Shown here piece after piece: positions 16,800-27,323 of a DNA stretch of 64,000 nt. Within the stretch, counting starts at the first letter, position 1. Each line of letters starts with the position of its first letter. The notes beneath the pieces are model-generated. The model saw only the letters and a list, made by a program, of their open reading frames with translations. It had not been told where the DNA came from and did no database searches. Origin of the DNA: a phage; sequence record PZ445444.1, one strand, 5' to 3'. The position numbers and the translations under genes were made by a program.

Positions 16800-17300
16800 A
16801 AAATTTCTGGCATATCAAGTGTAAGGAGGATTTCTAAAATGGATTTCCTCCTTTTGATATTTCACCGGGCTAGATATTTTAAAATTCTTAGAAAATCAGA
16901 AAATGGATCGAAAACTAAAATGGATTTTTCAGAGCAGGCACGACGAGATGAACCACTCATCCTATCGTCTGCACCATATTCCAGACCACCATTACAGATT
17001 TCCCGCACATGCTCACATCCTTCTACTAGAACTTCCCCCACTTACCCTTGACCTTTTATAGTAATAATCCAACCACTACCTTGAAGTTGTGGCGCAGCTT
17101 TCCAAGTACTCGATCTGTTTTTCGTTTCAAAGATTGAATTTTCTGAAAATTTTTCTCGATAAATTTCTCAGTACTCGATCTGTTTTTCGTTTTCTGAATC
17201 GGATTTTCTGGAAATCGTTCCGGCTCTCGACCTGAAATTTTTGGGGACGAAATCGATTTTTCGTTTTCAGAAATGGATTTTTAAAATTTCTATATGGGAA
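16800..17300. repeat. iteron-like direct-repeat region without convincing ORFs
   Basis: Repeated aaaatggat units and two copies of tactcgatctgtttttcgttt plus related cgatttttcgttttc. Confidence 0.5.
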
Positions 17301-17401
17301 TATTTTAGTGGATACTATTTTATAGGAAATTGTTACGGAGGGTAATTAGCGTGCTAATTAAATTTATTAAATGCGAGGAGTTCTCATTTAGAATTTTGAA
17401 T

Positions 17402-17480
17402 GATAATCATTCTCGTTTGCAGAATAACGGGCAGGCCCGGTGATTGTCTCCCGGCCCCTACTGCCCCGGCTTGTTATTAT
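17402..17480 (+). repeat. structured hairpin repeat element, copy 1
   Basis: gataatcattctcgtttgcag ... cccggtgattgtctccc ... ctgcccc; nested inverted repeats around conserved ttgtctccc. Confidence 0.5.
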
Positions 17481-17530
17481 AGTAACACACAGGACAAAGA
17501 AAGCAAGAAGTTTTTGCATAAATTTTTAGA

Positions 17531-17620
17531 CGATAATGATAATCGTTCTCATTTCATGCAGCGCCCATCCCCGGTGGTTGTCTCCCCCGTCACCGGTGCC
17601 TGCCGTCCTTTCGATAGGTA
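17531..17620 (+). repeat. structured hairpin repeat element, copy 2
   Basis: gataatcgttctcatttcatgcag ... ccggtggttgtctcccccgtcaccggtgcctgccgt. Confidence 0.5.
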
Positions 17621-17667
17621 TATTTTGCCACCTAGCGGGGCCGCTGTCAACACTTTTCAAAAAAAAA

Positions 17668-17682
17668 AAAAAATTTCTAACC
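17668..17682. repeat. A homopolymer tract (about 14-15 A)
   Basis: Uninterrupted run of A in a non-coding region. Confidence 0.8.
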
Positions 17683-17816
17683 TGATGCGCTGACCGCTGC
17701 AACCTGGCGGGGCCAGCCTGGCAGGGCCTAACTGACCAGGTAGGAGAGAATGAAGGCTTGCAAACCTGGTGGGCCTATGCTATAGGATAGATAACAATTG
17801 AAGAGGAGGTACAAAA

Positions 17817-17993
17817 ATGGAAGGTAATATGATCCCCCTGGAAAATGTAGCTATTAATGACGCTGAGGCTATCGCCCTGGTTGAAAAGGCTATGGCGGGA
17901 GCGTTGGAACATAAAGAAGAGTACGAAAAAATGATGGTTAACCTGGCAGGGGCGGCGGCTGGAGAATTCTACCCAAAAAATAATTTTAACTAA
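17817..17993 (+). CDS. hypothetical small protein (58 aa)
   Basis: ATG preceded by GAAGAGGAGG; below the ORF-track length cutoff. Confidence 0.45.
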   Translation: MEGNMIPLENVAINDAEAIALVEKAMAGALEHKEEYEKMMVNLAGAAAGEFYPKNNFN

Positions 17994-17996
17994 TGG

Positions 17997-18025
17997 TTGA
18001 CAGCTCGGACAGTTCTTGTTATTCT
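17997..18025 (+). promoter_or_regulatory. sigma70-like promoter
   Basis: TTGACA-N17-TATTCT. Confidence 0.45.
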
Positions 18026-18078
18026 TATCCTCGCAAGGTGAACAACACCACACCAATTAACAGAGAGGATAAAAAATC

Positions 18079-18276
18079 ATGAACGCCTACGGAATTAAAG
18101 TACGTCGCAACACTCGCCAGGTGGTCACCAATCAAGTGATTTGCCGGGTGGATGTAACCATCAACAACGGGCAAGGCCTTTATAAATTTCGTCGCGGTCA
18201 TAGCTATACCCTGCAACAGCTTAATCGTTGCGCCCTGACAAAAGGTCAGATCAACCACTGGTTTAATAAAAAATAA
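18079..18276 (+). CDS. hypothetical basic protein (65 aa)
   Basis: RBS GAGAGGA upstream of ATG. Confidence 0.5.
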   Translation: MNAYGIKVRRNTRQVVTNQVICRVDVTINNGQGLYKFRRGHSYTLQQLNRCALTKGQINHWFNKK

Positions 18277-18279
18277 GTA

Positions 18280-18308
18280 TTGACATATAGTCCGACACCA
18301 AATACACT
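18280..18308 (+). promoter_or_regulatory. sigma70-like promoter
   Basis: TTGACA-N17-TACACT. Confidence 0.5.
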
Positions 18309-18340
18309 AAAAGCACAAAAGACACTAAGAGGATAAAATC

Positions 18341-18739
18341 ATGAAAACCACTACCTTTAATTTTGATAATGCAGACTTTTCTTTTTCTGATGTCAAGAAC
18401 TGCCGCCGTGATCGTGGATTTTACAAGGCTTATAATCTGGTGGGCCTGGACGATGACAATAATTTGCACGAAGTAGCTGAGATCCGGTATTATGCCGCCG
18501 CCAGTGGTAACACTCACTACTGCGTGTTTTGGATTCACGACAACAAGAACAATAAGTACGGTTATACTGGCGGCAAGGCGAGCGGTCACGGTTACGATAA
18601 AGCTAACGCAGCACTTGAGAGCGCATTAAATGCTATGGGGATCACTGCCGACGGCTGGATCTACGAAGAAGAGTTTTTGTCGGCACTTGCTGACCACCTG
18701 GGCTATAAAAAGCACATTGTGACATGCGCCCACGAATAA
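18341..18739 (+). CDS. hypothetical protein (132 aa)
   Basis: RBS AAGAGGA upstream of ATG. Confidence 0.6.
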   Translation: MKTTTFNFDNADFSFSDVKNCRRDRGFYKAYNLVGLDDDNNLHEVAEIRYYAAASGNTHYCVFWIHDNKNNKYGYTGGKASGHGYDKANAALESALNAMGITADGWIYEEEFLSALADHLGYKKHIVTCAHE

Positions 18740-18745
18740 AAATCA

Positions 18746-18773
18746 TTGACACGCTGCAAAATTTAAGTAAACT
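18746..18773 (+). promoter_or_regulatory. sigma70-like promoter followed by GC-hairpin leader
   Basis: TTGACA-N16-TAAACT, then ggcgggaa-tgt-ttcccgcc hairpin before the RBS. Confidence 0.5.
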
Positions 18774-18822
18774 AGACACAAAAGGCGGGAATGTTTCCCG
18801 CCAGCACAAAGGAAAAAAGATC

Positions 18823-19218
18823 ATGAATAAGAACGTACGCCGCATCATGAACGAACTGGCAAACGATGAAAAAATTATTGACATGCATTTAGTCAACATT
18901 TGCCGCCGTTGTGTAACATATAACAACCGCGCCGCAAAAGCGCGTGAGATGAACGCAAAAGGCACCTTAAAGCCCTTTCAGGTGGTTGTAAAATCTATAA
19001 CCAGTGCAGCAGGCCAGGCGCATGACCACAACAACGGGAGCACTAATATTGATCCGTCTTACGTAATGAAACGGATCCGGACTTGCAAGAATAAAGAGCA
19101 GGTGTATAATGTCATAGACTGGTTGGACTCTATGGGCGATGTGGTTTACAATAGGTTTTCTGCAGCTATCGAGATCCAGCTTGACAGGTTGGACGGTAAA
19201 GTACTGAAAACTTACTAA
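18823..19218 (+). CDS. hypothetical protein (132 aa)
   Basis: ATG at 18823 after AAAGGAAAA; the track start at 18724 is upstream of the promoter. Confidence 0.55.
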   Translation: MNKNVRRIMNELANDEKIIDMHLVNICRRCVTYNNRAAKAREMNAKGTLKPFQVVVKSITSAAGQAHDHNNGSTNIDPSYVMKRIRTCKNKEQVYNVIDWLDSMGDVVYNRFSAAIEIQLDRLDGKVLKTY

Positions 19219-19220
19219 GA

Positions 19221-19266
19221 TTATTTTTAGATGGCCTTGACTTCAGGGCCATCAATAAAGTAAACT
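19221..19266 (+). promoter_or_regulatory. conserved hairpin element with TTGAC in the loop, copy 1
   Basis: ttatttttagatggccttgacttcagggccatcaataaagtaaac; about 10-bp stem; possible TTGACT-N18-TAAACT promoter. Confidence 0.45.
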
Positions 19267-19298
19267 AATCCCAGTTAAGCGAAAAAGGAGGCTTGAAG

Positions 19299-19418
19299 AT
19301 GAGCACTACACGCCAACACACAAAGGTAACGATTATCGTTTGCATCATTGGTTACATCCTGGCGCAAATGTTGATGGGTAGCGCCAATGATTTCGCAAAA
19401 TTTTTCTTAGACTTTTAA
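19299..19418 (+). CDS. hypothetical small hydrophobic peptide (39 aa)
   Basis: ATG preceded by AAGGAGG; product MSTTRQHTKVTIIVCIIGYILAQMLMGSANDFAKFFLDF has a single predicted membrane helix. Confidence 0.4.
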   Translation: MSTTRQHTKVTIIVCIIGYILAQMLMGSANDFAKFFLDF

Positions 19419-19446
19419 TTGACAAGCTAACTTAAATCAGTATAAT
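19419..19446 (+). promoter_or_regulatory. sigma70 consensus promoter
   Basis: TTGACA-N16-TATAAT. Confidence 0.6.
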
Positions 19447-19498
19447 ACTAAGCACATAAACGGGAAAACTTCCCAGAACACCAAAAGGAGAAAACATT

Positions 19499-19849
19499 AT
19501 GAATACTTCCATCACTATGACCGCCGAAGAAAAAGCCCTGCAGATCGCCGCTCTGAAAAAACAGATTGCAGAACTTGAAGACAAGATCGACAATTTTGAA
19601 ATCGACGAAGACAAGTACGACGATAAATATGATGAATGGTTAGACGAGATCTACGGCGAAATCATGATCGGAAACATTTCTTTTCTTCCGTCGCGTATCC
19701 TCAAGGAGCTAGATCCTATCGCTTACCGCTGCGGATTTAGCGACTACATCGACAGCCTGGATATTGAGGACGATGAAGAATACCAGGAATTACAGACAGA
19801 GCTCGAAGAAGTGAAAGAAGAGCTTGCAGAACTGGAAGAAAACGAGTAA
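19499..19849 (+). CDS. hypothetical acidic coiled-coil protein (116 aa)
   Basis: RBS AAGGAGA; heptad-like E/K-rich segments. Confidence 0.6.
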   Translation: MNTSITMTAEEKALQIAALKKQIAELEDKIDNFEIDEDKYDDKYDEWLDEIYGEIMIGNISFLPSRILKELDPIAYRCGFSDYIDSLDIEDDEEYQELQTELEEVKEELAELEENE

Positions 19850-19851
19850 AT

Positions 19852-19898
19852 TTATTTTTAGATGGCCTTGACCCCAGGGCCATCAATAAAGTAAACTT
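19852..19898 (+). promoter_or_regulatory. conserved hairpin element, copy 2
   Basis: tttatttttagatggccttgaccccagggccatcaataaagtaaac. Confidence 0.45.
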
Positions 19899-19938
19899 TA
19901 GACTGTTAACACTTAACCAATACAGAGGAGTTAAAACC

Positions 19939-20184
19939 ATGGCAGCACTAATCACCAAATATTATGCCCCTACCAACACCAAAAGCGCCCGTATCATGGT
20001 AAAAGGCTTCGGACGTAAAAAGGTGTACACCTGGGATTATGCCTTAGACACGGAAGACAACTACACCAACGCAATGACCGATTTTATTAATGAACTAAAT
20101 AAGCAGATCTTGACAAGTTATAAAGTGACCGATATTGCTTATATAGGTGAAGGCGGGATCTGTTTTGTAGGCATTGTGAAATAG
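19939..20184 (+). CDS. hypothetical protein (81 aa)
   Basis: RBS GAGGAG upstream of ATG. Confidence 0.55.
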   Translation: MAALITKYYAPTNTKSARIMVKGFGRKKVYTWDYALDTEDNYTNAMTDFINELNKQILTSYKVTDIAYIGEGGICFVGIVK

Positions 20185-20189
20185 TTATT

Positions 20190-20235
20190 TTTTCGGTGGT
20201 CCTGGTTGCAGGGCCATCTATAAAGATAATTTATT
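20190..20235 (+). promoter_or_regulatory. conserved hairpin element, diverged copy 3
   Basis: ggtggtcctg-gttg-cagggccatc forms a 10-bp stem with wobble pairs, followed by tataaagataat. Confidence 0.4.
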
Positions 20236-20258
20236 AACACCATGAAAGGAGAAAGTAC

Positions 20259-20612
20259 ATGATCAGCGGGGCAAGTTTTATTATTGGCGCTATTGCTACG
20301 GCTTTAATTGTAAATAAGATCCAGGATAAAAAGGAAAGAGGAAGTACCGCCCTTGCAGAATATCCATTTTGGGCATTCAACGATAACGAAGATTATATTA
20401 TAAAGTATAAAAATAAAGAAGGTGACCAAGTAACACCGCGACCGATCCCGGCTTACAAAATGCAGGAAACACTATACCGCCTGGAGGCGGGAGGCGCAAA
20501 AATTGTAGACTTTTGGGGATACGACCACACAGATCAGGAAGTTATAAAGCGCCGTATCCGGGCTATTCAGGCCAATATTGAAGTTAGCAAGGGGGGAATA
20601 TATGAAGATTAA
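20259..20612 (+). CDS. hypothetical protein with N-terminal membrane helix (117 aa)
   Basis: RBS AAGGAGA; N-terminus ISGASFIIGAIATALIV. Confidence 0.55.
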   Translation: MISGASFIIGAIATALIVNKIQDKKERGSTALAEYPFWAFNDNEDYIIKYKNKEGDQVTPRPIPAYKMQETLYRLEAGGAKIVDFWGYDHTDQEVIKRRIRAIQANIEVSKGGIYED

Positions 20613-20799
20613 TTTTGAGAAGATTGTAAAGCGATCTCATGATTCCGAAGAGCTGCCGGAACGACGCCAGCGTAACAATAAACTGAATAAGCCAAAAAGA
20701 TTTGGAAAGATCTGGCGAAATCATTATGATCGTAAATTGCCTGGCCTACTTTTGGAACGTGAACGACAGGCAGAACGATACCGCCATAAAGACAAATAA
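20602..20799 (+). CDS. hypothetical basic protein (65 aa)
   Basis: ATG at 20602 after AAGGGGGGA; overlaps the upstream gene end. Confidence 0.5.
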   Translation: MKINFEKIVKRSHDSEELPERRQRNNKLNKPKRFGKIWRNHYDRKLPGLLLERERQAERYRHKDK

Positions 20800-20807
20800 C
20801 AACCAAC

Positions 20808-20834
20808 GCCCCGCCATTGTGCGGGGCTTTTTAT
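20808..20834 (+). terminator. intrinsic terminator
   Basis: gccccgc-cattgt-gcggggc followed by tttttattt. Confidence 0.7.
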
Positions 20835-20980
20835 TTCTATCCTACAAATAGCGCCCCTGGTTGGCCCTGTAAGCGCCAAAAAGGCCCCACCTATGCAATC
20901 GCCCCCCTTTAACCTGAAAACATCGCTTAGGGCCGTTTTATGGCGTTAAAAATATCATTGACAGTGATTTTATTTAAAGC

Positions 20981-21008
20981 TTGACATCTTAAACAGGTTA
21001 GCTATACT
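20981..21008 (+). promoter_or_regulatory. sigma70-like promoter (second of tandem TTGACA boxes)
   Basis: TTGACA-N16-TATACT; another TTGACA lies about 25 nt upstream. Confidence 0.6.
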
Positions 21009-21040
21009 AACCACATCAAAGAGAGAAAGGAGTAAACGCC

Positions 21041-21301
21041 ATGCGTAAATTAAAAAATTTTGATAAAGTTGATGTTGTCCTGAATAATTTTTACTACTGC
21101 AACAACAAGGCCATTTGGTGGCGTGATAGTTCCACCGATAAAGTTAAAGCTCGCTTTCTCCAAGGGCACTGGCAAGGCCGTCCAGTGATTAAAATACTGG
21201 GGCAACTGGTAGCGTTTAAAAATTGCCGCCGTGTTGATGACGTTGAAGAGATCTTGAACATTTTACGCCACAATAATTTAAAAAATAGTGTTGACAAGTA
21301 A
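21041..21301 (+). CDS. hypothetical protein (86 aa)
   Basis: RBS AAAGGAG upstream of ATG. Confidence 0.55.
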   Translation: MRKLKNFDKVDVVLNNFYYCNNKAIWWRDSSTDKVKARFLQGHWQGRPVIKILGQLVAFKNCRRVDDVEEILNILRHNNLKNSVDK

Positions 21302-21318
21302 ATCTCGATAAGTATACT
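21291..21318 (+). promoter_or_regulatory. sigma70-like promoter with GC-hairpin leader
   Basis: TTGACA-N16-TATACT, then ggcgggaa-aac-ttcccgcc hairpin. Confidence 0.6.
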
Positions 21319-21375
21319 TAAACACACAGGCGGGAAAACTTCCCGCCACTAACAAAGAAAATAGGAGAAAATATC

Positions 21376-21999
21376 ATGACCACCGTTAACATTACCACAG
21401 GTTACAATTTATCTTTCGACGTGCTGACCGACGAACAAAAAGAAAAAGCTATTGAAATGGTCCGCGAAAGAGAAGAACACAGCGGGGATAATTTTTTTGC
21501 AGAAAGTGTAATTGAACACTATAAAGAATATGTCTTTCCAGAGTACGGCCTTGAAGATACCGAAGTACGTTGGTCCGGCTTTTGGTGTCAAGGCGATGGC
21601 GCGTCAATCAGTGCTGAAAACGTGGATTTAGAAAAATTCTTGCGTAAAGTAAAGGCCCTGACCAAGTTCCGATCAATTCGTCACTTGTTCGGCACAATGC
21701 ACGATGGCGAGTTATCAGCCAGTGTTGAACGTATCCCGTTTAGCCATTATCATCACGAAAACACAATAGGAGGGTGCATCGATACTAATTGGCTAGACCT
21801 GACCACCAAGCAAGAGGACAAAGTTGAAGAGCTGGAAGAGCTGATCACCGAGACGGTACGGGAGCTATCCCGCAAGGTTTACGTAGACCTGGAGGAGGCC
21901 TATCTTGAACAGTTTACTACCGAAAACCTGATCGGCCTTATTGAAGCCAATGATTGGCGGTTTGATGTGGATGAATATGGGGAGATGAGTTTTTCATAA
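21376..21999 (+). CDS. hypothetical acidic protein (207 aa)
   Basis: RBS AGGAGA; no confident motif. Confidence 0.6.
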   Translation: MTTVNITTGYNLSFDVLTDEQKEKAIEMVREREEHSGDNFFAESVIEHYKEYVFPEYGLEDTEVRWSGFWCQGDGASISAENVDLEKFLRKVKALTKFRSIRHLFGTMHDGELSASVERIPFSHYHHENTIGGCIDTNWLDLTTKQEDKVEELEELITETVRELSRKVYVDLEEAYLEQFTTENLIGLIEANDWRFDVDEYGEMSFS

Positions 22000-22007
22000 A
22001 TAAAGTG

Positions 22008-22035
22008 TTGCAATAATCTAAAAACCTGCTATATT
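22008..22035 (+). promoter_or_regulatory. sigma70-like promoter
   Basis: TTGCAA-N16-TATATT, followed by ggggc...gcccc leader hairpin. Confidence 0.5.
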
Positions 22036-22088
22036 AAAAACTCAAGGGGCGAGATGACTTGCCCCCACAAAACAAAGAGGAAAACATC

Positions 22089-22469
22089 ATGAAAAACACT
22101 ACTAAAGCTATTGACACCGTTATGTTTAACCTGGTTACATTCCGTGAAGATATGAAAGATCTTCCACGTGAAACAGTGTGCGACCATATCGAAAACTATC
22201 GCAAACTAATCAAAGAGTTGCCTTTAAAACGTGACCAGTACGCGGCTAACGCTATGCTTAACGCCATGATCAAAAAGATGATCCAGTGTGATTTAACTCT
22301 GGCCTATGATTATGCAGGCGGTCGTTTTGCAGTATACAATCAGCCCGTGCCCGGTATGAGCACCACCGAAGAATTGCACGCGTTAAATCTGAAACAAGAT
22401 GTATGGGATAACATGCCCCGCGTGGTGGTGTGGGCAGAAAGCGGAAAGATTTACGGCGATAATTTTTAA
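22089..22469 (+). CDS. hypothetical protein (126 aa)
   Basis: ATG at 22089 after AAAGAGGAAAA. Confidence 0.55.
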   Translation: MKNTTKAIDTVMFNLVTFREDMKDLPRETVCDHIENYRKLIKELPLKRDQYAANAMLNAMIKKMIQCDLTLAYDYAGGRFAVYNQPVPGMSTTEELHALNLKQDVWDNMPRVVVWAESGKIYGDNF

Positions 22470-22533
22470 TCAGGTAACAGGCGGCATATTTGCCGCCTTA
22501 TTGTTAAACAGAACTGCAAAAGAGGTACATAGA

Positions 22534-22905
22534 ATGGAATTTATTATTTTGGCTGTAGTAGTTGCCTTGTTCAACGCCTGGATCGCTGGCAAGATGGGTA
22601 GATCCGCTTTTTTATGGTTTATTATATCTATTTTCCTGGGGGTGGTTGCAACTATTGTACTTGTTATCCTTGCAATTGTTGACAAGGGGAATAATAGAAA
22701 GGGTAAAGTATTTTCAGACCTGTACGACGCTCAAACATTTGTCAACGCCTACTACAGCGATCTTCCAGTCTCCCTACGTTGCAGCCTTGCACAACAGGTT
22801 TTCGATGAAGCTAAAACCAGAGATCACGCCCATGAGATTTGTTTAACTGAGGCGGATCGCCTATTTGAGAGGAATAGAAAATATGTGGACCAGCCGTTTA
22901 AATAA
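22534..22905 (+). CDS. hypothetical membrane protein (123 aa, two predicted helices)
   Basis: ATG at 22534 after AAGAGG; hydrophobic stretches FIILAVVVALFNAWIA and FLWFIISIFLGVVATIVLVILAIV. Confidence 0.55.
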   Translation: MEFIILAVVVALFNAWIAGKMGRSAFLWFIISIFLGVVATIVLVILAIVDKGNNRKGKVFSDLYDAQTFVNAYYSDLPVSLRCSLAQQVFDEAKTRDHAHEICLTEADRLFERNRKYVDQPFK

Positions 22906-23124
22906 TGCCACGTTAATTAACCCCTTTAGTGAAGATTTGAAGCCAGCCGCCTGGCGGGATGGATTCAATAACGAAAGCTTTATTTTCAGGCCTGATCTTA
23001 AGGAATTTTATAACAATGGATCGAACAACGACAGAGATAATTTTTCTTGTAATGTGCGTGGTGATAATACTCCTGGGGGCCATTGCAAACCACGTCACTG
23101 CTAACAGGAGGAAAGGGGGAGACG

Positions 23125-23244
23125 ATGACACCTAAGGATAAGCCCCGCACCGATAAGGCGCGCCGTGTTATGGTATGGCTTGAGATCATCGCCCTTGAAA
23201 TATTGTTAGGCGTAGGGATGTATTTTATCGCTGTAAGTAATTGA
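23125..23244 (+). CDS. hypothetical small membrane peptide (39 aa)
   Basis: ATG preceded by AGGAGGAAAGGGGGAG; hydrophobic C-terminal half. Confidence 0.35.
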   Translation: MTPKDKPRTDKARRVMVWLEIIALEILLGVGMYFIAVSN

Positions 23245-23296
23245 TAACGGCCCCGATCCCTGGGGCCTAACTTTTCAAATTTTTTTCTCCCTGAGT

Positions 23297-23325
23297 GTTG
23301 CAATCCGATCCAGAATATGGATAAT
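23297..23325 (+). promoter_or_regulatory. sigma70-like promoter
   Basis: TTGCAA-N17-ATAATA. Confidence 0.4.
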
Positions 23326-23384
23326 AACAATCAACGGGGAGACACTCCCCACCGCATAGACAAAGTTCCAAAAGGAGAAACAAA

Positions 23385-23586
23385 ATGAGCAACAATATCC
23401 GCGTTATTAACTTCAAAAAAGAAGAAAAAAATTGCCGTGCTGATTGACGGTCAAGAAATCTTTAAAGGTGATTATGAAGATCATCAAACGGCGATTAGTA
23501 TCACTCGCGTGATTGGTTACCATAATTTTTACCCTCAAGGCGCTGAGGCAGCAGTAAAACGAATTAAAGAGATTGTAGGCCTGTAA
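23385..23586 (+). pseudogene. small gene interrupted by a +1 frame change at an A7 run
   Basis: ATG 23385 after AAAGGAGAAA; frame stops at 23447 just after the A7 run at 23425-23431; a downstream frame runs uninterrupted to 23586. Removing one A gives a continuous 66-aa ORF. Confidence 0.45.
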
Positions 23587-23588
23587 AA

Positions 23589-23636
23589 TTTATTTTTAGA
23601 TGGCCTTGACTCCAGGGCCATCAATAAAGTAAATTT
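23589..23636 (+). promoter_or_regulatory. conserved hairpin element, copy 4
   Basis: tatttttagatggccttgactccagggccatcaataaagtaaat. Confidence 0.45.
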
Positions 23637-23677
23637 AAACCCTGTTAAAATAATCAGTGCAAAAAGGAGTAATGATC

Positions 23678-23977
23678 ATGTTTATCCAGGCTAATAATCT
23701 TTATTTCTTTGATGGTCAGATCGTAGACGGCGTGGAGGTGGAAATCACCGGGTGCCCTGGCGGTCAGGTTATGACTTTTCGGAATAATGCCTTTGATGAT
23801 TCTCATATCGTTATGAGAATGGAAGTTAGTAAGCTGGATGACAAGAAAACACTCATTGATTATTCCGTGAAAGATCATCCAGACTACCACATGATCTATG
23901 GTGATTTGTGCATTGTTGACCGTGACAAGGTGGGCGGCATTGTGATCGCTATTGTGAACGATGTTTTCTCAAACTAA
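23678..23977 (+). CDS. hypothetical protein (99 aa)
   Basis: ATG at 23678, 8 nt after AAGGAG. Confidence 0.55.
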   Translation: MFIQANNLYFFDGQIVDGVEVEITGCPGGQVMTFRNNAFDDSHIVMRMEVSKLDDKKTLIDYSVKDHPDYHMIYGDLCIVDRDKVGGIVIAIVNDVFSN

Positions 23978-23994
23978 TTTCAGCAGGTGATTTT

Positions 23995-24345
23995 ATGAAA
24001 GTAAAACTATATTACCTTAATGAGCTTAACCCCCTTGCCCAGGTCCGCGCCCTGGCTAATACCTTGATTTGTGAGAAATCTGTATATTGTGTTGAGCTTA
24101 ACTCCATGCGTGAACGTCTCAAAGGTGGTTACTTTGACATCCATGCTGCAATCAACGGCCTGAATATGGAATTTATCCGCTTACGTAACAGCCGCCAGAA
24201 TCTGGCAAGAATGGAACAAGATCCGGCCCACCTTCGTAAGCTGGTTATTGAAAATCATCTAATGTTTAATGCCGATGGTGATTATTACCATTTTCACCGT
24301 AAACGCTGGTACCGTAGCGGCAATATAGGAAAGAATGCAAAATAA
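23995..24345 (+). CDS. hypothetical protein (116 aa)
   Basis: ATG start; no recognisable motif. Confidence 0.55.
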   Translation: MKVKLYYLNELNPLAQVRALANTLICEKSVYCVELNSMRERLKGGYFDIHAAINGLNMEFIRLRNSRQNLARMEQDPAHLRKLVIENHLMFNADGDYYHFHRKRWYRSGNIGKNAK

Positions 24346-24382
24346 GGCCCCTGGCAGGGCCTGCAGCGATATAATCACATAA

Positions 24383-24414
24383 AGGCTATGCGGTTGCATA
24401 GCCTTTATTATTTT
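24383..24414 (+). terminator. intrinsic terminator
   Basis: aggctatgc-ggtt-gcatagcct followed by ttattatttt. Confidence 0.6.
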
Positions 24415-24463
24415 GGCGTTACAGCGGCCCCCAAGGCGCTTAAAAAAATTTTTAAAGAAGTAC

Positions 24464-24492
24464 TTGCATCAAGTCCTACAATATGGATAATA
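24464..24492 (+). promoter_or_regulatory. sigma70-like promoter (weak)
   Basis: TTGCAT-N17-ATAATA. Confidence 0.4.
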
Positions 24493-24550
24493 AAGGGTGT
24501 CGGGGGGGTGAGGCCTCCAATCATTAACCGGATAGATAGGAGTTAAAACC

Positions 24551-24835
24551 ATGGCTATTGTTACCGTTGGCGATGTAGTAGAAATGGAAGCCAAATACTT
24601 AAAAGCTGGTATGCATATCATACGGAATGATCAAGAATTGTTATTAACCATGGTTGAATATAATCCCGGTCAGGATTATCCAAGCACTGACTACTTTTTC
24701 CAGTATGTTGATGAAGAATTAAAAGAGGATGAGGCTTATCAGGGTGAATTTTGTAATTTCTTTTGCCCTGATGAGGTTGTAAAAGTTATCTATCAACCTG
24801 GCGTACCTTTCCCGCTGCACGCTATCAACAAATAA
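24551..24835 (+). CDS. hypothetical protein (94 aa)
   Basis: RBS TAGGAG upstream of ATG. Confidence 0.55.
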   Translation: MAIVTVGDVVEMEAKYLKAGMHIIRNDQELLLTMVEYNPGQDYPSTDYFFQYVDEELKEDEAYQGEFCNFFCPDEVVKVIYQPGVPFPLHAINK

Positions 24836-24890
24836 ACCTGGCGGGGCCGAAAAGGCCCCCAATTATGAAAATAAAGAGAGGCAAATCATC

Positions 24891-25124
24891 ATGATGGAAC
24901 AAATTAAACGCGCCGAGGCTATTAATGGCAACGTGATCTATTTTGTCAGCAAAAACGAAAAAGGCGTACCCTATGCGGCGGTAATAGTACAGCCTGACGG
25001 CGATTATTGGTGTACTGTGTACGGCGCTTATTCTTTTGGGCGTCCAGTGCATGATAAAATTTTGAAAGTAGCGAACCCTACCGGGAAAAATATCACAGCA
25101 GAAAAATTTTTTGAAAATAGTTGA
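24891..25124 (+). CDS. hypothetical protein (77 aa)
   Basis: RBS AAAGAGAGG upstream of ATG. Confidence 0.5.
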   Translation: MMEQIKRAEAINGNVIYFVSKNEKGVPYAAVIVQPDGDYWCTVYGAYSFGRPVHDKILKVANPTGKNITAEKFFENS

Positions 25125-25149
25125 CATGACCATATAAGACTGTAGTATA
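25121..25149 (+). promoter_or_regulatory. sigma70-like promoter with GC-hairpin leader
   Basis: TTGACA-N16/17-TAGTAT, then ggggc-aa-gcccc hairpin. Confidence 0.5.
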
Positions 25150-25195
25150 TAAATCAAAGGGGCAAGCCCCACCAACCACAAAGAGGATAAAAATC

Positions 25196-25375
25196 ATGGC
25201 TATTATTGCAAAGACTGAGATCGTAGGCTTGGATTCTATTCTCCTCGCATATGAGGAAGCTATAGAAATGTATGTGGTTTCCTATGGTGAGTATATCCGT
25301 GAATATAAATCTATTGATCTGGCTTTTGAATGTTATATTCGCCAGGTTAATAAAGCGTACGATGATTATCGTTAA
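25196..25375 (+). CDS. hypothetical small protein (59 aa)
   Basis: ATG after AAAGAGGATAAAAA; below the ORF-track cutoff. Confidence 0.45.
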   Translation: MAIIAKTEIVGLDSILLAYEEAIEMYVVSYGEYIREYKSIDLAFECYIRQVNKAYDDYR

Positions 25376-25465
25376 AATAGTTTGAAAACAAACAACCATC
25401 TTACAAAGCATAATACATAAGGCGGTGGAATGGTCCGCCACCTGGAACAAGAAGAGGAAAACAAA

Positions 25466-25570
25466 ATGAAACAGAAATTAATTGATGCGGTGATCCTGGT
25501 TATTGCCCTGGGTATTGGCCTGATTGCAACCATGGCTAATGTGATCTTGTCTTCCAACGGTATCGGGTGA
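25466..25570 (+). CDS. hypothetical small membrane peptide (34 aa)
   Basis: ATG after AGAAGAGGAAAA; product MKQKLIDAVILVIALGIGLIATMANVILSSNGIG. Confidence 0.35.
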   Translation: MKQKLIDAVILVIALGIGLIATMANVILSSNGIG

Positions 25571-25579
25571 GGTTGGCAA

Positions 25580-25795
25580 ATGATCACTAACAAAACAGGC
25601 AAAACGGAATTTTTACGCAACTTACAGATCGGCAAGCCTGAGATCTGGTATTGCACTAAAACACCACGTGACGAAATGAAAGACTTCACCGCCACGCTGC
25701 AACGGGTAAAGATATCCATCACGCAGAAAAAGGCCTTGATAGTGGTGGAAGGTGAGATCCCTCAAACCGTTGTTATAGTTGAGCGTACAGCATAG
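25580..25795 (+). CDS. hypothetical protein (71 aa)
   Basis: ATG start closely following the small peptide ORF. Confidence 0.5.
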   Translation: MITNKTGKTEFLRNLQIGKPEIWYCTKTPRDEMKDFTATLQRVKISITQKKALIVVEGEIPQTVVIVERTA

Positions 25796-25886
25796 TTTAA
25801 TTTATACCGATACCCGAAAATTAACCAACAAAGCATAAACAGGCGGTTACCGCCGCCTTAAACGTAGCAGAAAGAGGATAGACACA

Positions 25887-26171
25887 ATGAAAAAGATGAT
25901 CGCAGTGGTTGCCCTGGTTGTTGGACTTAATGCGCCTGTAATGGCTAAAGAGCTGGCAAAAGAGGTTAATCTAACGGATATTCATGCCGTCAATCGAATC
26001 GGGGTTACTTATCGCTTATGCCTTGCCGCTAAAACTTTTAAGGACGGCACGACAGAGTACTACGGATTCGAAGGTGTCCGGTGCGGTGAACTTGCTCGCG
26101 ACCTTAAGGAAGATCCAGACCTGGAGGATCTGCCCATCACCGTAAACGGGAAAACTTACGTAAACCGTTAA
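25887..26171 (+). CDS. hypothetical secreted protein (94 aa)
   Basis: RBS AAAGAGGA; N-terminal signal-peptide-like MKKMIAVVALVVGLNAPVMA. Confidence 0.55.
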   Translation: MKKMIAVVALVVGLNAPVMAKELAKEVNLTDIHAVNRIGVTYRLCLAAKTFKDGTTEYYGFEGVRCGELARDLKEDPDLEDLPITVNGKTYVNR

Positions 26172-26173
26172 CC

Positions 26174-26308
26174 ATGATAAAGATAATCATCACCTTGGGG
26201 ATTGTGGCGGGATCGCTGGCGCTCTTTCTCCTTATGGTTAGGTATGTGCTGATCGGTATTGTCCTGGTAGTCAGTGATCTATTGGAAACGGTTGGCACCT
26301 TGTTTTAA
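26174..26308 (+). CDS. hypothetical small membrane peptide (44 aa)
   Basis: ATG 2 nt after the upstream stop; product almost entirely hydrophobic. Confidence 0.35.
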   Translation: MIKIIITLGIVAGSLALFLLMVRYVLIGIVLVVSDLLETVGTLF

Positions 26309-26320
26309 AGAGCGGTAAAA

Positions 26321-26512
26321 ATGAATATCGAACAAGTTAGAAAGGTATTGGCGGTACTGCGTTATCATAATCATAGAAAGGTCATAGACGATCCTGATTA
26401 TGTCGATTCAAGCCTGGAAGGGGATACACTACAAGCCATAAGTAACATGCAAGAATTGCTAAAGCGCATGACAGAGAAAAACCGACCGGACTACATAGGC
26501 GAAAAAATATAA
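26321..26512 (+). CDS. hypothetical protein (63 aa)
   Basis: ATG start; followed by a terminator. Confidence 0.5.
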   Translation: MNIEQVRKVLAVLRYHNHRKVIDDPDYVDSSLEGDTLQAISNMQELLKRMTEKNRPDYIGEKI

Positions 26513-26526
26513 TCCTTATAAACTAC

Positions 26527-26556
26527 AAAACAGGGCTTGCAATGGTCCTGTTTTTT
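26527..26556 (+). terminator. intrinsic terminator (imperfect stem)
   Basis: aaaacagggc ... ggtcctgtttt followed by a T-run. Confidence 0.45.
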
Positions 26557-26571
26557 GTTATACTTGTTTCA

Positions 26572-26622
26572 CGGCAGGCACCTGGTGACGGGGGGAGACA
26601 ATCACCGGGTGTGCCTGCTATA
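26572..26622 (-). repeat. structured hairpin repeat element, copy 3 (inverted relative to copies at 17.4-17.6 kb)
   Basis: Reverse complement reads ccggtgattgtctccccccgtcaccaggtgcctgccgt, near-identical to the 17531-17620 copy. Confidence 0.5.
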
Positions 26623-26640
26623 TAAAAACTATAAAAACCG

Positions 26641-26669
26641 TTGACATCTGCCAGGTGGTGGGGTAGCAT
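26641..26669 (+). promoter_or_regulatory. sigma70-like promoter
   Basis: TTGACA-N17-TAGCAT. Confidence 0.5.
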
Positions 26670-26724
26670 TTATCTCGAAGGGGGCAAAAGCGCCCACACA
26701 ACAACCGGAAGAGAGGAAAACGCC

Positions 26725-26997
26725 ATGTTAAGCTGGATTAACCAAGAAGTTGAATCACGTTTCAATGCTATTTGGGATCTCATCGAAAAAGAGGACGGAA
26801 CATCAAGCCCTTATCTCAATAATCTTGAATTCCATTTCGTGGAAGCGATGAACGCAGAACATGATCACGAAGGTGGTGCGGATGAATTCGCTAAAGGATA
26901 TGGCTTCAACAATGCCAACGAAATGATCGAGGCGGTTGTACTCCAGGCTGAGGAAGATTATCAATTAAAAACGCTTGAATTCTGCCGCCGTAAGTAA
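26725..26997 (+). CDS. hypothetical acidic protein (90 aa)
   Basis: ATG at 26725 after GAAGAGAGGAAAA. Confidence 0.55.
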   Translation: MLSWINQEVESRFNAIWDLIEKEDGTSSPYLNNLEFHFVEAMNAEHDHEGGADEFAKGYGFNNANEMIEAVVLQAEEDYQLKTLEFCRRK

Positions 26998-27059
26998 TAA
27001 GATAATGACACAGGCCAAAAGGCCCACTAAACAAAAACCACATAAAGAGGAAAAACATC

Positions 27060-27323
27060 ATGAAACGCCTTGATCAGCTCAAATTAGTTCAATATATGGC
27101 TTATCGTGTTCTTGAAGTCCAGAAAGGTAGCAAAAAAGAGGTTTGCGAGAAAGCTTATAAGATCTTCACTCGCAAAAAAGATGATTGGATGTTACGCCAG
27201 ACCAAAAAAGCCGATATCTTGGGGTACCTGGAAGAAGAGATCCGGCTTGAAGAGCAAGAAGAGATCCGCCGCAGTGAGGCAGATTATCAGGCAGCTTGGG
27301 AAAACTGGATGAATAACAAATAA
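27060..27323 (+). CDS. hypothetical protein (87 aa)
   Basis: RBS AAAGAGGAAAAA upstream of ATG. Confidence 0.55.
   Translation: MKRLDQLKLVQYMAYRVLEVQKGSKKEVCEKAYKIFTRKKDDWMLRQTKKADILGYLEEEIRLEEQEEIRRSEADYQAAWENWMNNK

Follow-up and report, generated by a model that had tools for sequence, protein, structure and literature searches.

A promoter-associated repeat element conserved in rV5-type phages and the Fur-type boxes beside it

What is the short sequence that recurs in the window analysed here, a 64,000-nt stretch of phage DNA (record PZ445444.1), and what might it do? The window comes from an rV5-like Escherichia phage showing 99% identity to Vequintavirus phages. A first-pass annotation described three copies, one of them inverted, of a conserved structured hairpin of about 45 nt, two of which were preceded by a gataatc(a/g)ttctc box.

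Identification of three copies in the window

We searched the window for CCGGTGRTTGTCTCCC and found exactly three exact matches, at 17437-17452 (+), 17571-17586 (+) and 26593-26608 (-). Allowing up to 3 mismatches, the whole window yielded nothing beyond these three copies (chance expectation 0.5), and three matches were reached in 1 of 100 shuffles. An unfiltered covariance-model search of the 64 kb returned the same loci with 64.2 bits for copy 1, 47.6 bits for copy 2 and 70.3 bits for copy 3, and no fourth copy, the best remaining match scoring 11 bits. The three copies, one inverted, were thus borne out.

Copy 1, with type B arms (AGCCGGGGCAGTAGGGGCC-GGGAGACAATCACCGG-GCCTGCCCGTTATTCT), occupies 17421-17471 on the minus strand, with its invariant core GGGAGACAATCACCGG at 17437-17452. 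Copy 2 (ACGGCAGGCACCGGTGACGG-GGGAGACAACCACCGG-GGATGGGCGCTGCAT) lies at 17556-17606, also on the minus strand, with the core GGGAGACAACCACCGG at 17571-17586, and copy 3 (ACGGCAGGCACCTGGTGACGGG-GGGAGACAATCACCGG-GTGTGCCTGCTAT) lies on the plus strand at 26571-26621, with its core at 26593-26608. The distance from copy 1 to copy 2 is 134 nt, with a promoter between them, and each has its own promoter. The proposed length of about 45 nt holds for copies 2 and 3, which are similar across about 37-48 nt (76% over 37 nt), but not for copy 1, which has in common with copy 3 the 16-nt core and 13 nt more (86% over 29 nt) and differs from it in the far arm.

Conservation of the element in related phages

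A 60-nt query from copy 3 gave matches in 157 phage records. The records fetched from these matches belonged to the Vequintavirinae (Certrevirus, Seunavirus, Henunavirus) and, in the case of PD06 and FBKp34, to the Stephanstirmvirinae, and the motif was near-invariant in all of them. Persistence in related phages was the test that the first-pass annotation had set itself, and the element passes it. The rV5-like genomes each contain the element in 2-3 places. A covariance model run over related loci recovered 47 copies, and the promoter and box statistics below refer to a non-redundant set of 45 copies taken from rV5-like phages and their relatives. In the alignments the core is invariant, while both arms vary between clades. 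Nothing in the window reached the gathering threshold of any Rfam family, and E-value scans of both loci gave only sub-threshold matches, with no toxin-antitoxin family among them. The motif had no match in 5,426 E. coli genomes, in a search too insensitive for short matches. The repeats represent genuine copies of a non-coding module, hitherto undescribed, that is found in rV5-type phages, and the conserved feature is the primary sequence.

Test of a conserved RNA structure

On folding, copy 3 formed the strongest hairpin of the three, with a 15-bp stem, a 13-nt loop and a minimum free energy of -28.1 kcal/mol (z = -4.4). The stems of copies 1 and 2 were weaker: in copy 1 different arms pair (z = -2.2), and in copy 2 the outer stem is degenerate (z = -1.4). 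The nested stems described earlier therefore apply to copy 3 and not to the other two. Over single copies of the family, fold z-scores spanned -4.4 to +1.0.

The description of the element as a conserved structured hairpin was not upheld. First, arm pairing among 40 distinct copies was no better than in column shuffles; the proportion of paired cells (64-68%) equalled the shuffle mean and exceeded only the slid-partner control (31-44%). Second, 123-180 of 500 shuffles gave a covariation score at least as high, showing no excess over controls. Third, an arm-swap test revealed no cognate advantage (-17.7 kcal/mol for cognate vs. -17.1 kcal/mol for non-cognate arms, p = 0.14). There are a few double changes, such as A-U to G-C at one outer pair, or GCG/CGC in CR9 vs. 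GGC/GCC in FBKp34. Because G-U cells (46, of which 19 come from one pair) only modestly exceed A-C cells (32), an RNA structure on the GGGAGACAAYCACCGG strand is not proven either, and a conserved structure across the family is unproven.

Promoters and orientation of the element

We read the element in the orientation GGGAGACAAYCACCGG because a universally conserved promoter lies on that side. In this orientation a sigma-70-type promoter is situated 23-37 nt upstream of the core, measured from the end of the -10, in the 45 copies. The best upstream -35/-10 pair scored 9.07/12 on average and at least 9/12 in 34 copies; an upstream TG was present in 31 of the 45, and most of the promoters scoring at least 9/12 have one. 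On the opposite strand, the corresponding region averaged 6.02/12, with at least 9/12 in only 4 of 45. Thus, a -35 and -10 at the right spacing are kept among relatives, as in a sigma-70 transcription unit, and the first-pass orientation has to be turned round (9.1/12 vs. 6.0/12). To judge from these promoters, the probable reading strand is the minus strand for copies 1 and 2, opposite to the flanking genes, and the plus strand for copy 3. With the element read as GGGAGACAAYCACCGG, the box said to precede it lies downstream of it.

The promoter-like sequence of copy 1 (P1; 17476-17506, minus strand) consists of TTGCTT followed by TG-n-TACTAT or an overlapping TATAAT, the latter being the hexamer scored. 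It ends 5-8 nt before the element and is kept in L066, L108 and L129. The P1 of copy 2 (17622-17650, minus strand) reads TTGACA-17-CAAAAT with an upstream TG and scores 10/12. Both copies keep their promoters though no minus-strand gene follows them; the annotated plus-strand ORF at 17400-17693 is broken in a relative. At copy 3, a terminator-like hairpin (26527-26554) and P1 (26537-26564; TTGCAA-16-TATACT with an upstream TG) together span 26527-26564 on the plus strand. The -35 of this P1 is in the loop of the hairpin, and the promoter continues into its 3' flank and points into the element; the same arrangement was found in PD06, CR9, GEC_vB_MG, FBKp34 and L127. A second promoter-like sequence, TTGACA-17-TAGCAT, stands at 26641-26669 (+), after copy 3 and ahead of the following gene, whose ATG is at 26725, so that copy 3 does sit between a terminator-like hairpin and a promoter, as first described. 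Other early promoters of the window also carry their -35 in a terminator-like hairpin loop, and the element is absent after them. A literature search found no transcript data for Vequintavirinae phages.

Fur-type boxes downstream of the element

The Fur box of E. coli is GATAATGATAATCATTATC, with a 7-1-7 core TGATAAT-N-ATTATCA (fhuA, fecI, fepA/fes, entC). The boxes recorded earlier by copies 1 and 2 are present, at 17399-17417 and 17535-17553; however, they are not an anonymous motif but a Fur-type operator sequence. The box by copy 1 (AATGATAATCATTCTCGTT) scored 26.3 bits with our matrix and is identical to the fhuA operator over 16 consecutive nt, and a weaker second box (AATGCGAGGAGTTCTCATT, 15.7 bits) lies beyond it at 17370-17388. 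The box by copy 2 (AATGATAATCGTTCTCATT) scored 28.5 bits. Searching for GATAATGATAATCATTATC with up to 3 mismatches gave 3 matches against 0.02 expected, two of them being both strands of 17532-17550, which overlaps copy 2's box and agrees at 17 of 19 positions (2 mismatches); for the box, the consensus match is therefore beyond chance. Three further Fur-type boxes (29231-29249, 29249-29267 and 29365-29383) were found with the matrix in a 2-kb non-coding region with no element nearby.

Among the 45 copies, 30 match TGAKAATNATTMTCA with no more than 3 mismatches at an offset of +33/35 or +65 (0.056 expected per copy by chance). We also ran a matrix built from 28 phage boxes alone on 80 kb of E. 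coli K-12, where it produced 6 hits of at least 12 bits, 5 of them in the promoter regions of fepB/entC, fepA/fes, fepD/entS and fhuA. The boxes thus show sequence preferences like those of genuine host operators, and one box type agrees with the fecI operator at 18 of 19 positions. From core to box the 3' flank contains no indels and the spacing is fixed, features also expected of an arrangement at the DNA level. Situated downstream of P1, the box overlaps only weak candidate promoters, namely TATTCT upstream of it (8 of 45 copies) and AATGAT inside it on the other strand. Lying 55-75 nt after a start site, the box is not where a Fur site classically stands. By sequence, the boxes next to copies 1 and 2 belong to the class of sites that Fur, the iron repressor of the host, uses, and virulent rV5-type phages may read host iron status. 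A FecI (iron-starvation ECF sigma) promoter was also considered and rejected, as only GATTGTC is common to the fecA promoter and the GAAxAA spacing is 4 nt off.

Possible roles of the element

The first-pass list of a protein-binding site, a processing signal or a small structured RNA likely still holds the answer. Our best explanation, a tentative one to which we give somewhat less than an even chance, is that early non-coding transcripts carry the element at their 5' terminus as a recognition element, with iron gating by Fur at copies 1 and 2. Host RNA polymerase would transcribe each copy from its own sigma-70-type promoter, the element forming the first ~50 nt of the RNA. Copies 1 and 2 would give minus-strand RNAs that are antisense to the flanking genes and run into a non-coding repeat region; copy 3 would give a plus-strand RNA upstream of the second promoter and a small gene. 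The putative hairpin would be closed by its two arms, G-rich on the 5' side and C-rich on the 3' side, with YCACCGG as its inner 3' strand and the invariant GGAGACAA unpaired. Because the core is invariant while the arms differ between clades, GGAGACAA may be what some protein or RNA partner recognizes, in a sequence-specific manner, at the 5' end of non-coding or leader RNAs made early. At copies 1 and 2 and most copies of other genera, the transcript would then encounter a Fur-type operator, or a pair of them, at 33-35 nt (or 65 nt) past the core start. Fur-Fe2+ on the box could block the polymerase immediately after the element or regulate a box-overlapping promoter, and both would make the output dependent on host iron.

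A somewhat unlikely alternative is that the element is a DNA-level regulatory site, its core being bound by a DNA-binding protein or forming part of a second promoter. It fits the retention of primary sequence and not of pairing, the absence of indels from the core to YTATTC, and the fixed core-box distance of 33/35 or 65 bp. In one version, the core at about +20 to +38 of P1 would be an operator or roadblock for a phage or host protein. In another, GAGACA would be a -35-like hexamer with TATTCT as the -10 18 bp on and the start under the Fur box; GAGACA-N18-TATTCT with a box 5 nt on does occur in copy 1, Hena1, L156, L185, L256 and L311, and L365 has it with the box at +64. However, a hexamer with the essential A2 and T6 stands at that position in only 8 of 45 copies, most of the others reading TATTCA, TATATA, TGCATG or TTTTCA. 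In addition, the core is non-palindromic, its distance from P1 varies from 23 to 37 bp, and it is invariant even where hexamer and box are absent (copy 3, PD06, L093, L124).

These last loci also count against a reading in the orientation of the first-pass annotation, in which a Fur-repressed promoter over the box, as at fhuA, would read on the plus strand into copies 1 and 2: copy 3, PD06 and L093/L124 keep the core with neither the box nor such a promoter. We regard this reading as unlikely. The identical 16-nt box of fhuA does overlap a -10 in the direction of the window's plus strand, L066, L108 and L299 retain, at 8/12, the AATGAT/GATAAT hexamers within the boxes together with the TTTGCA or TTCGCA placed 16 nt before the box of copy 2, and Hena1 has TTCACA-16-TATGTT just before its box. 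Nevertheless, promoter scores on that strand are low (mean 6.0/12; at least 9/12 in 4 of 45), and the distal half-site of Certrevirus, GATAAC, has no T at hexamer position 6. The product, made under iron starvation, would be an RNA with a CU-rich loop, UUGUCUCCC, that could base-pair with a Shine-Dalgarno-like GGAGA; together with P1, such a promoter would make a convergent pair with RNAs complementary over 59-69 nt.

It is still less probable that the non-coding 17.06-17.8 kb is a replication origin with the element in its primer RNA. P1 transcripts with their G-rich 5' ends would enter A/T-rich repeats and prime or activate replication, by an R-loop or transcriptional activation; T4 oriF/oriG, the T7 primary origin and ColE1 RNA II are precedents. 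The block comprises 740 bp of non-coding DNA with an A15 tract, two tandem promoters pointing against the genes, and three direct repeats of ~65 bp each (17096-17281), downstream of copy 1 on the minus-strand reading; promoter, element, box and A/T-rich repeats follow in the same order in Hena1. The rV5 paper marked a "non-coding" box and reported that the origin could not be located (PMC3606486). On the other side, copy 3 and type A copies in other genera lie in ordinary early gene arrays without repeats, and an unrelated phage contig has at least 4 copies, several each before a small gene. Furthermore, a GC-skew break is absent at 17.4 kb, and no DnaA boxes or short iterons were identified.

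Finally, a role of the copies in terminating or attenuating transcription of the flanking genes is highly improbable: copy 3 is an intergenic GC-rich hairpin, but, as had been stated before, no U-tract follows any of the three copies, and this holds on either strand (the stems continue into UAUAUAAAAAC, UAUUCUGC and CAUGAAAUG), the terminator scan gave no hit at any of the three sites, a canonical terminator already lies 17 nt upstream of copy 3, and invariant-sequence loops of 10-13 nt are no terminator feature.

Extending the favoured reading of a 5'-terminal recognition element, the virulent rV5-type phages that infect enterobacteria would possess a dedicated family of non-coding RNAs coupled to the iron sensor of the host; as a whole, we consider this scenario rather unlikely. 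A constitutive early promoter would yield a 5' hairpin RNA with a GGAGACAA loop, and Fur at its fixed-distance operators would decide among three fates of this RNA: staying short, extension into the repeats (a possible origin), or opposition from an antisense RNA transcribed convergently under Fur control. Because there are six or seven strong Fur-type boxes per genome and many replicating genome copies, the phage boxes could also titrate Fur and so switch on host iron uptake. If true, the programme of a strictly lytic phage would be directly linked to host iron status.

Comparison with known systems

The boxes share with E. coli Fur operators the palindromic 7-1-7 architecture and, in the window, a 17/19 consensus match. 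They differ in their commonest half-site, TGAGAAT rather than the host TGATAAT, and in lying 55-75 nt downstream of the best promoter instead of over its -35/-10.

Like lambda nut boxA/boxB and HK022 putL/putR, the element is short, conserved and located just downstream of early promoters, and it is orientation-specific, with few copies per genome in early regions full of terminators. Unlike them, it begins at +1 to +5 and not tens to hundreds of nt downstream, and two copies read into non-coding DNA. It has no boxB-like 15-nt hairpin, and it folds as a single hairpin, whereas put (~70 nt) has two stem-loops. Reading the element sequences by eye revealed no boxA (CGCUCUUUA), and on this and the single hairpin an antiterminator RNA of this kind was rejected.

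The promoter-early stem-loops (PeSL) of T4-type phages resemble copy 3 in having a promoter -35 within a terminator-like hairpin loop; this likeness concerns the promoter of copy 3, not the element. If the Fur-overlapping promoter is real, the locus would resemble the antisense cassettes of ColE1 (RNA I/RNA II) and R1 (CopA/CopT), with facing promoters 59-69 bp apart, a hairpin between them, complementary RNA 5' ends and one RNA running into a candidate origin region. However, the second phage promoter is weak by sequence (8/12), and copy 3 and many relatives lack it.

A mimic of a type III antitoxin (toxI, cptI, tenpI) was rejected on the lack of head-to-tail repeats and of any toxin-antitoxin family in the Rfam scans. 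To our knowledge, the ToxI repeat bears no resemblance to the phage element, and copies 1 and 2, separated by 134 nt and with their own promoters, do not stand head to tail. Pectobacterium phage PhiTE, described as rV5-like, carries an intergenic pseudo-ToxI non-coding RNA, a head-to-tail 36-nt repeat mimicking an antitoxin (PMC3475682). Phages of the same wider group thus carry functional small RNAs.

Distribution of the element in the window and in related phages

The invariant core of the element, CCGGTGRTTGTCTCCC, was found exactly at 17437-17452 (+), 17571-17586 (+) and 26593-26608 (-), and there was no further site in the window, even at three mismatches. Likewise, a covariance model recovered only three copies in the 64-kb window, namely copy 1 (17421-17471), copy 2 (17556-17606) and copy 3 (26571-26621); copies 3, 1 and 2 scored 70, 64 and 48 bits, respectively, against 11 bits for the next-best match. 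The first-pass annotation had proposed three copies of a ~45-nt element. This holds for the core, but the longer similarity (~37-48 nt) joins copies 2 and 3, while copy 1 has only the core and one flank in common with them. No U-tract follows any of the three copies and a terminator scan was empty at all three sites; thus, the earlier view that the element is not a canonical terminator is upheld.

The region around the element was 99% identical to Vequintavirus Escherichia phages (MaxBurger, RudolfGeigy and rV5 derivatives), with 121 matching phage records for 17000-18200 and 117 for 26200-27200. The motif had been called conserved, and it is clearly present in related phages: a 60-nt query of copy 3 retrieved 157 phage records, and the loci fetched from this list include those of Certrevirus CR9, PBES 02 and DU_PP_IV, Seunavirus GEC_vB_MG, Henunavirus Hena1, and Stephanstirmvirinae PD06 and FBKp34. 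The element occurs at 2-3 places in each rV5-like genome and at two in each of three large Certrevirus-like metagenomic contigs, and extra copies were gained by pattern scans of IMG/VR and metagenomes. Judged from these comparisons, the element is a family trait and a real, family-wide, undescribed non-coding module. Records named "Campylobacter phage" (16 or 17, with C. jejuni as host label) also matched this region of an E. coli phage; among the matches listed, their identity to the window region was 95-98%, and from sequence the host label looks doubtful.

A host origin of the element was rejected, since the 60-nt element had zero matches in 5,426 E. coli genomes in a search that would not report short matches, and a 17-mer was no commoner in bacterial genomes than estimated chance (91 occurrences in 596 Gb versus ~140 expected). 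No isolate enterobacterial genome was found among the 80 of these 91 loci that were listed, and one match came from a Citrobacter MAG contig. The 16-mer alone was discarded as an IMG/VR probe because it matched, by coincidence, mostly a lambdoid-prophage coding sequence, translated by eye as LPVIVSQYVGDQ; later search patterns were built so as to exclude this sequence.

Two further observations concern the wider distribution. First, four short copies of the core were detected on the 46.8-kb IMG/VR contig 3300027123_000194, from an unrelated phage, and several of them precede small genes. The typical layout there is a terminator, TGnTATAAT, 7 nt, ~45 nt with GGAGACAAYCACCGGGG and a T-run, and in both of the minus-strand copies that were read completely, the T-run is followed by another TATAAT promoter and a small gene; three ORFs of this contig had no PHROG match, and one of the three also had no match in the phage collection. 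Second, CR9, GEC_vB_MG and FBKp34 possess, ~30 nt past the element, a second ACCGRACCTGG unit that duplicates the element's 3' part (CACCGRACCTGCC). In FBKp34, the same G-to-A change is found at the two sites, suggesting that they evolve in concert or share a partner.

Orientation and promoters

In every clade, a -10-like hexamer was found 6-8 nt before the A that starts the 5' arm when the element is read in the orientation GGGAGACAAYCACCGG. Among 45 non-redundant copies, the best -35/-10 pair upstream in this orientation scored 9.07/12 on average and at least 9 in 34 copies, and an upstream TG was present in 31; the equivalent region of the other strand averaged 6.02/12, with at least 9 in only 4 of 45. 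The orientation assumed in the first-pass annotation was therefore corrected. The promoter-like site P1 extends from 17506 to 17476 for copy 1 (minus strand, TTGCTT ... TACTATAAT), from 17650 to 17622 for copy 2 (minus strand, TTGACA-17-CAAAAT) and over 26537-26564 for copy 3 (plus strand, TTGCAA-16-TATACT). In copy 3 and in the type A copies of other genera, the -35 lies within the loop of a terminator-like hairpin, as it also does in other early promoters of the window. A 51-nt repeat family (19217-19267, 19848-19898, 20182-20232 and 23586-23636) has a hairpin GATGGCC...GGCCATC with TTGAC in the loop, followed by a -10-like TAAACT; these repeats are predicted to be early promoters within stem-loops and resemble the promoter-early stem-loop cassettes known from T4-type phages.

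Small plus-strand genes fill positions 1 to ~28300, and the GC skew turns at ~30 kb. The tandem copies 1 and 2 lie within a 740-bp stretch (~17062-17800) without a credible gene, and their promoters point into non-coding DNA, against all neighbouring genes, which is hard to explain except by a non-coding transcript. In MaxBurger (MZ501093), three "hypothetical protein" CDS, bas54_0100 to bas54_0102, are annotated inside this block (window 17089-17678). The largest, a 97-codon ORF at 17400-17693 in the window, is probably a gene-caller artefact, because it overlaps both tandem copies and is interrupted in a related genome, leaving 46 and 61 codons. The rV5 genome map shows a box labelled "non-coding", of which nothing further is said (PMC3606486); we infer that it is the same 740-bp stretch. 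Beyond an A15 tract (17659-17673) that adjoins the copy 2 promoter, a GC-rich segment (17680-17790) contains repeated CCTGGYGGGGCC-like units, which are also present in promoter spacers (17750-17790 and 26647-26663).

Another segment without long ORFs, 28310-30300, lies where the plus- and minus-strand gene blocks converge. These 2 kb contain no ORF of more than 67 codons and have a low GC content and many short repeats, including gtgtaaac-like units (28810-28900), aggcaactat (three times) and caaacgaatggcatggc (at 28553 and 28785). Phage Gotham has an annotated 459-bp terminal repeat ~2 kb past copy 3; by this analogy, the physical genome ends of the present phage are probably near 28650-29110.

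Fur-type operators beside the element

The gataatc(a/g)ttctc box reported beside copies 1 and 2 is present, and its identity can now be predicted: the box at 17532-17550 has 17 of the 19 bases of the E. coli Fur consensus GATAATGATAATCATTATC. Three matches to this consensus at ≤3 mismatches were found (two being the two strands of 17532-17550), versus 0.02 expected. A 7-1-7 box, TGAKAATNATTMTCA, was present at ≤3 mismatches in 30 of the 45 copies, with a chance of 0.056 per copy, and lay at +33/35 relative to the first base of GAGACA (+65 in Certrevirus-like phages). In 80 kb of E. coli K-12 scanned with a weight matrix derived from 28 phage boxes only, six positions reached at least 12 bits, and five of them lie in the intergenic regions fepB/entC (twice), fepA/fes and fepD/entS and in the region upstream of fhuA, all of which are Fur-controlled promoters. 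Based on the consensus match and this retrieval of host operators, the box is by sequence a Fur-type operator. In addition, the copy 1 box and the fhuA operator have ATAATCATTCTCGTTT in common, and the Certrevirus-type box AATGATAACCATTCTCATT differs from the fecI operator at one of 19 positions. The half-sites are often unequal (TGAGAAT vs TGATAAT). Such inequality is usual at DNA sites bound by dimers, but in an RNA hairpin it would place a G-A mismatch inside the stem, and a hairpin reading of the box was therefore rejected. The same matrix also gave 19 bits, the level of the fhuA operator, to ATTGAGAATCATTCTGAAT (K-12 189581-189599, between map and tff/rpsB), which is not known to be a Fur target.

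Window boxes of at least 15 bits were located at 17370-88, 17399-417, 17535-53, 29231-49, 29249-67 and 29365-83, in non-coding DNA only. Away from any copy of the element, the segment 29231-29383 contains three strong Fur-type boxes (17-27 bits) and a fourth, weaker box at 29349. The genome total is six or seven boxes, all non-coding, which is enough to consider Fur titration during replication. A Fur box has been described upstream of the sitABCD cargo operon in temperate lambda-like phages (PMC6969025). The boxes described here lie in non-coding control regions of a virulent family, and for such regions of a virulent phage family our literature search yielded no account of conserved Fur boxes. 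The predicted coupling of the element to Fur-type operators was unexpected.

Sequence and structure of the arms

A G-rich, clade-variable 5' arm (ACGGCAGGCACCTGGTGAC..., AGCCGGGGCAGTAGGGGCC..., ATAGCGGGGAGAATTGACCC...) is able to pair with a C-rich 3' arm (..CCTGCCYGCTAT), which leaves GGAGACAA in the loop. The hairpin of the first-pass annotation is the fold of copy 3 (-28.1 kcal/mol, z = -4.4), and the folds of copy 1 (z = -2.2) and copy 2 (z = -1.4) are weaker. Individual double changes were observed: one outer pair is either A-U or G-C, and CR9 has GCG/CGC where FBKp34 has GGC/GCC. The rV5-like type 3 copies have three different 3' arms, each of which complements the same 5' arm once the register is shifted. 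Covariation as proof of the hairpin was nevertheless rejected, as three tests did not rise above their controls: 68.0% of cells were paired in a MAFFT alignment of 26 sequences (shuffle mean 68.0%) and 64.4% in a model-guided alignment of 40 distinct sequences (shuffle mean 64.5%), and in an arm swap cognate arms gave -17.7 and non-cognate arms -17.1 kcal/mol (p = 0.14). The sole control beaten was that with slid partners (31-44% paired), and the strand asymmetry of G-U vs A-C cells (46 vs 32) was not decisive. Folding thus predicts a real hairpin in the window copies, while selection on structure across the family was not significant in these formal tests. What stands of the "conserved structured hairpin" is a conserved sequence with pairing potential, and the selected feature is the sequence GGGAGACAAYCACCGG together with its 3' flank.

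Proposed mechanism and its implications

We infer the function of the module from its sequence and arrangement. The best-supported chain would run from P1 to a 5'-terminal ~50-nt element, then, in copies 1 and 2, to the Fur operators and on to the non-coding repeats. The invariant loop and the 3' strand would form a recognition site on the RNA. Gating by Fur would rely on a roadblock situated ~55-75 nt from the start, or else on a promoter overlapping the box. A same-sense promoter, GAGACA-N18-TATTCT, is conceivable at the box; as a general explanation it was rejected, because only 8 of 45 copies have the correct form. An antisense promoter with a fhuA-like layout is also conceivable, and its RNA would be complementary to the element over 59-69 nt.

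Alternatively, the module may be a regulatory site at the DNA level, which would accord with the fixed, indel-free geometry from core to box and with the absence of covariation. The region of copies 1 and 2 may also be an origin of replication. The rV5 study did not define an origin by skew analysis (PMC3606486). Copies 1 and 2 adjoin A/T-rich repeats and Hena1 is arranged likewise, but copy 3 and the copies in front of genes do not accord with an origin. The repeats themselves (17096-17281) are three direct repeats of ~65 bp, 74-79% alike, just past copy 1 in the minus-strand direction; a comparable block follows the element of Hena1 (~2600-2800 of the fetched locus). They could be origin iterons or repeat units of a non-coding RNA.

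The rV5-like phages are widely isolated and have been suggested as therapeutic agents against E. coli O157 and further pathogens, and their early region is mostly unannotated. A module kept from Vequintavirinae to PD06 and FBKp34 provides a concrete handle on early regulation, and the link to Fur-type operators is its less expected part. If Fur really binds, phage development would respond to the iron supply of the gut or of infected tissue or, conversely, host iron uptake would be altered by the phage; either effect bears on the efficacy of phage therapy.

Comparison with known systems

Several known types of signal were rejected. A terminator lacks support in the absence of a U-tract, a FecI-type promoter was rejected on spacing, and a sigma-54 promoter (TGGCAC-N5-TTGC) in the 5' arm has, by eye, a GG-to-GC spacing 2 nt too short. 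Sequence inspection also argued against a CRISPR-repeat mimic (no repeat-like hairpin), a CsrA sponge (type A copies have just one GGA) and a small ORF after a GGAG Shine-Dalgarno (no conserved start codon). A gene-specific leader was rejected because the downstream genes vary between phages, even between PD06 and PsgM04F; their PHROG matches are all of unknown function. Our literature search found no paper that describes the element, Vequintavirinae Fur boxes or a transcriptome of these phages.

The element matches no Rfam model, has the features of neither lambda nut nor HK022 put, and contains no ToxI-like repeat. Membership in such a family is not supported; by analogy, the element would act most like a promoter-proximal phage RNA signal, in cis or in trans, and the box beside it has, in sequence, the properties of a Fur operator.
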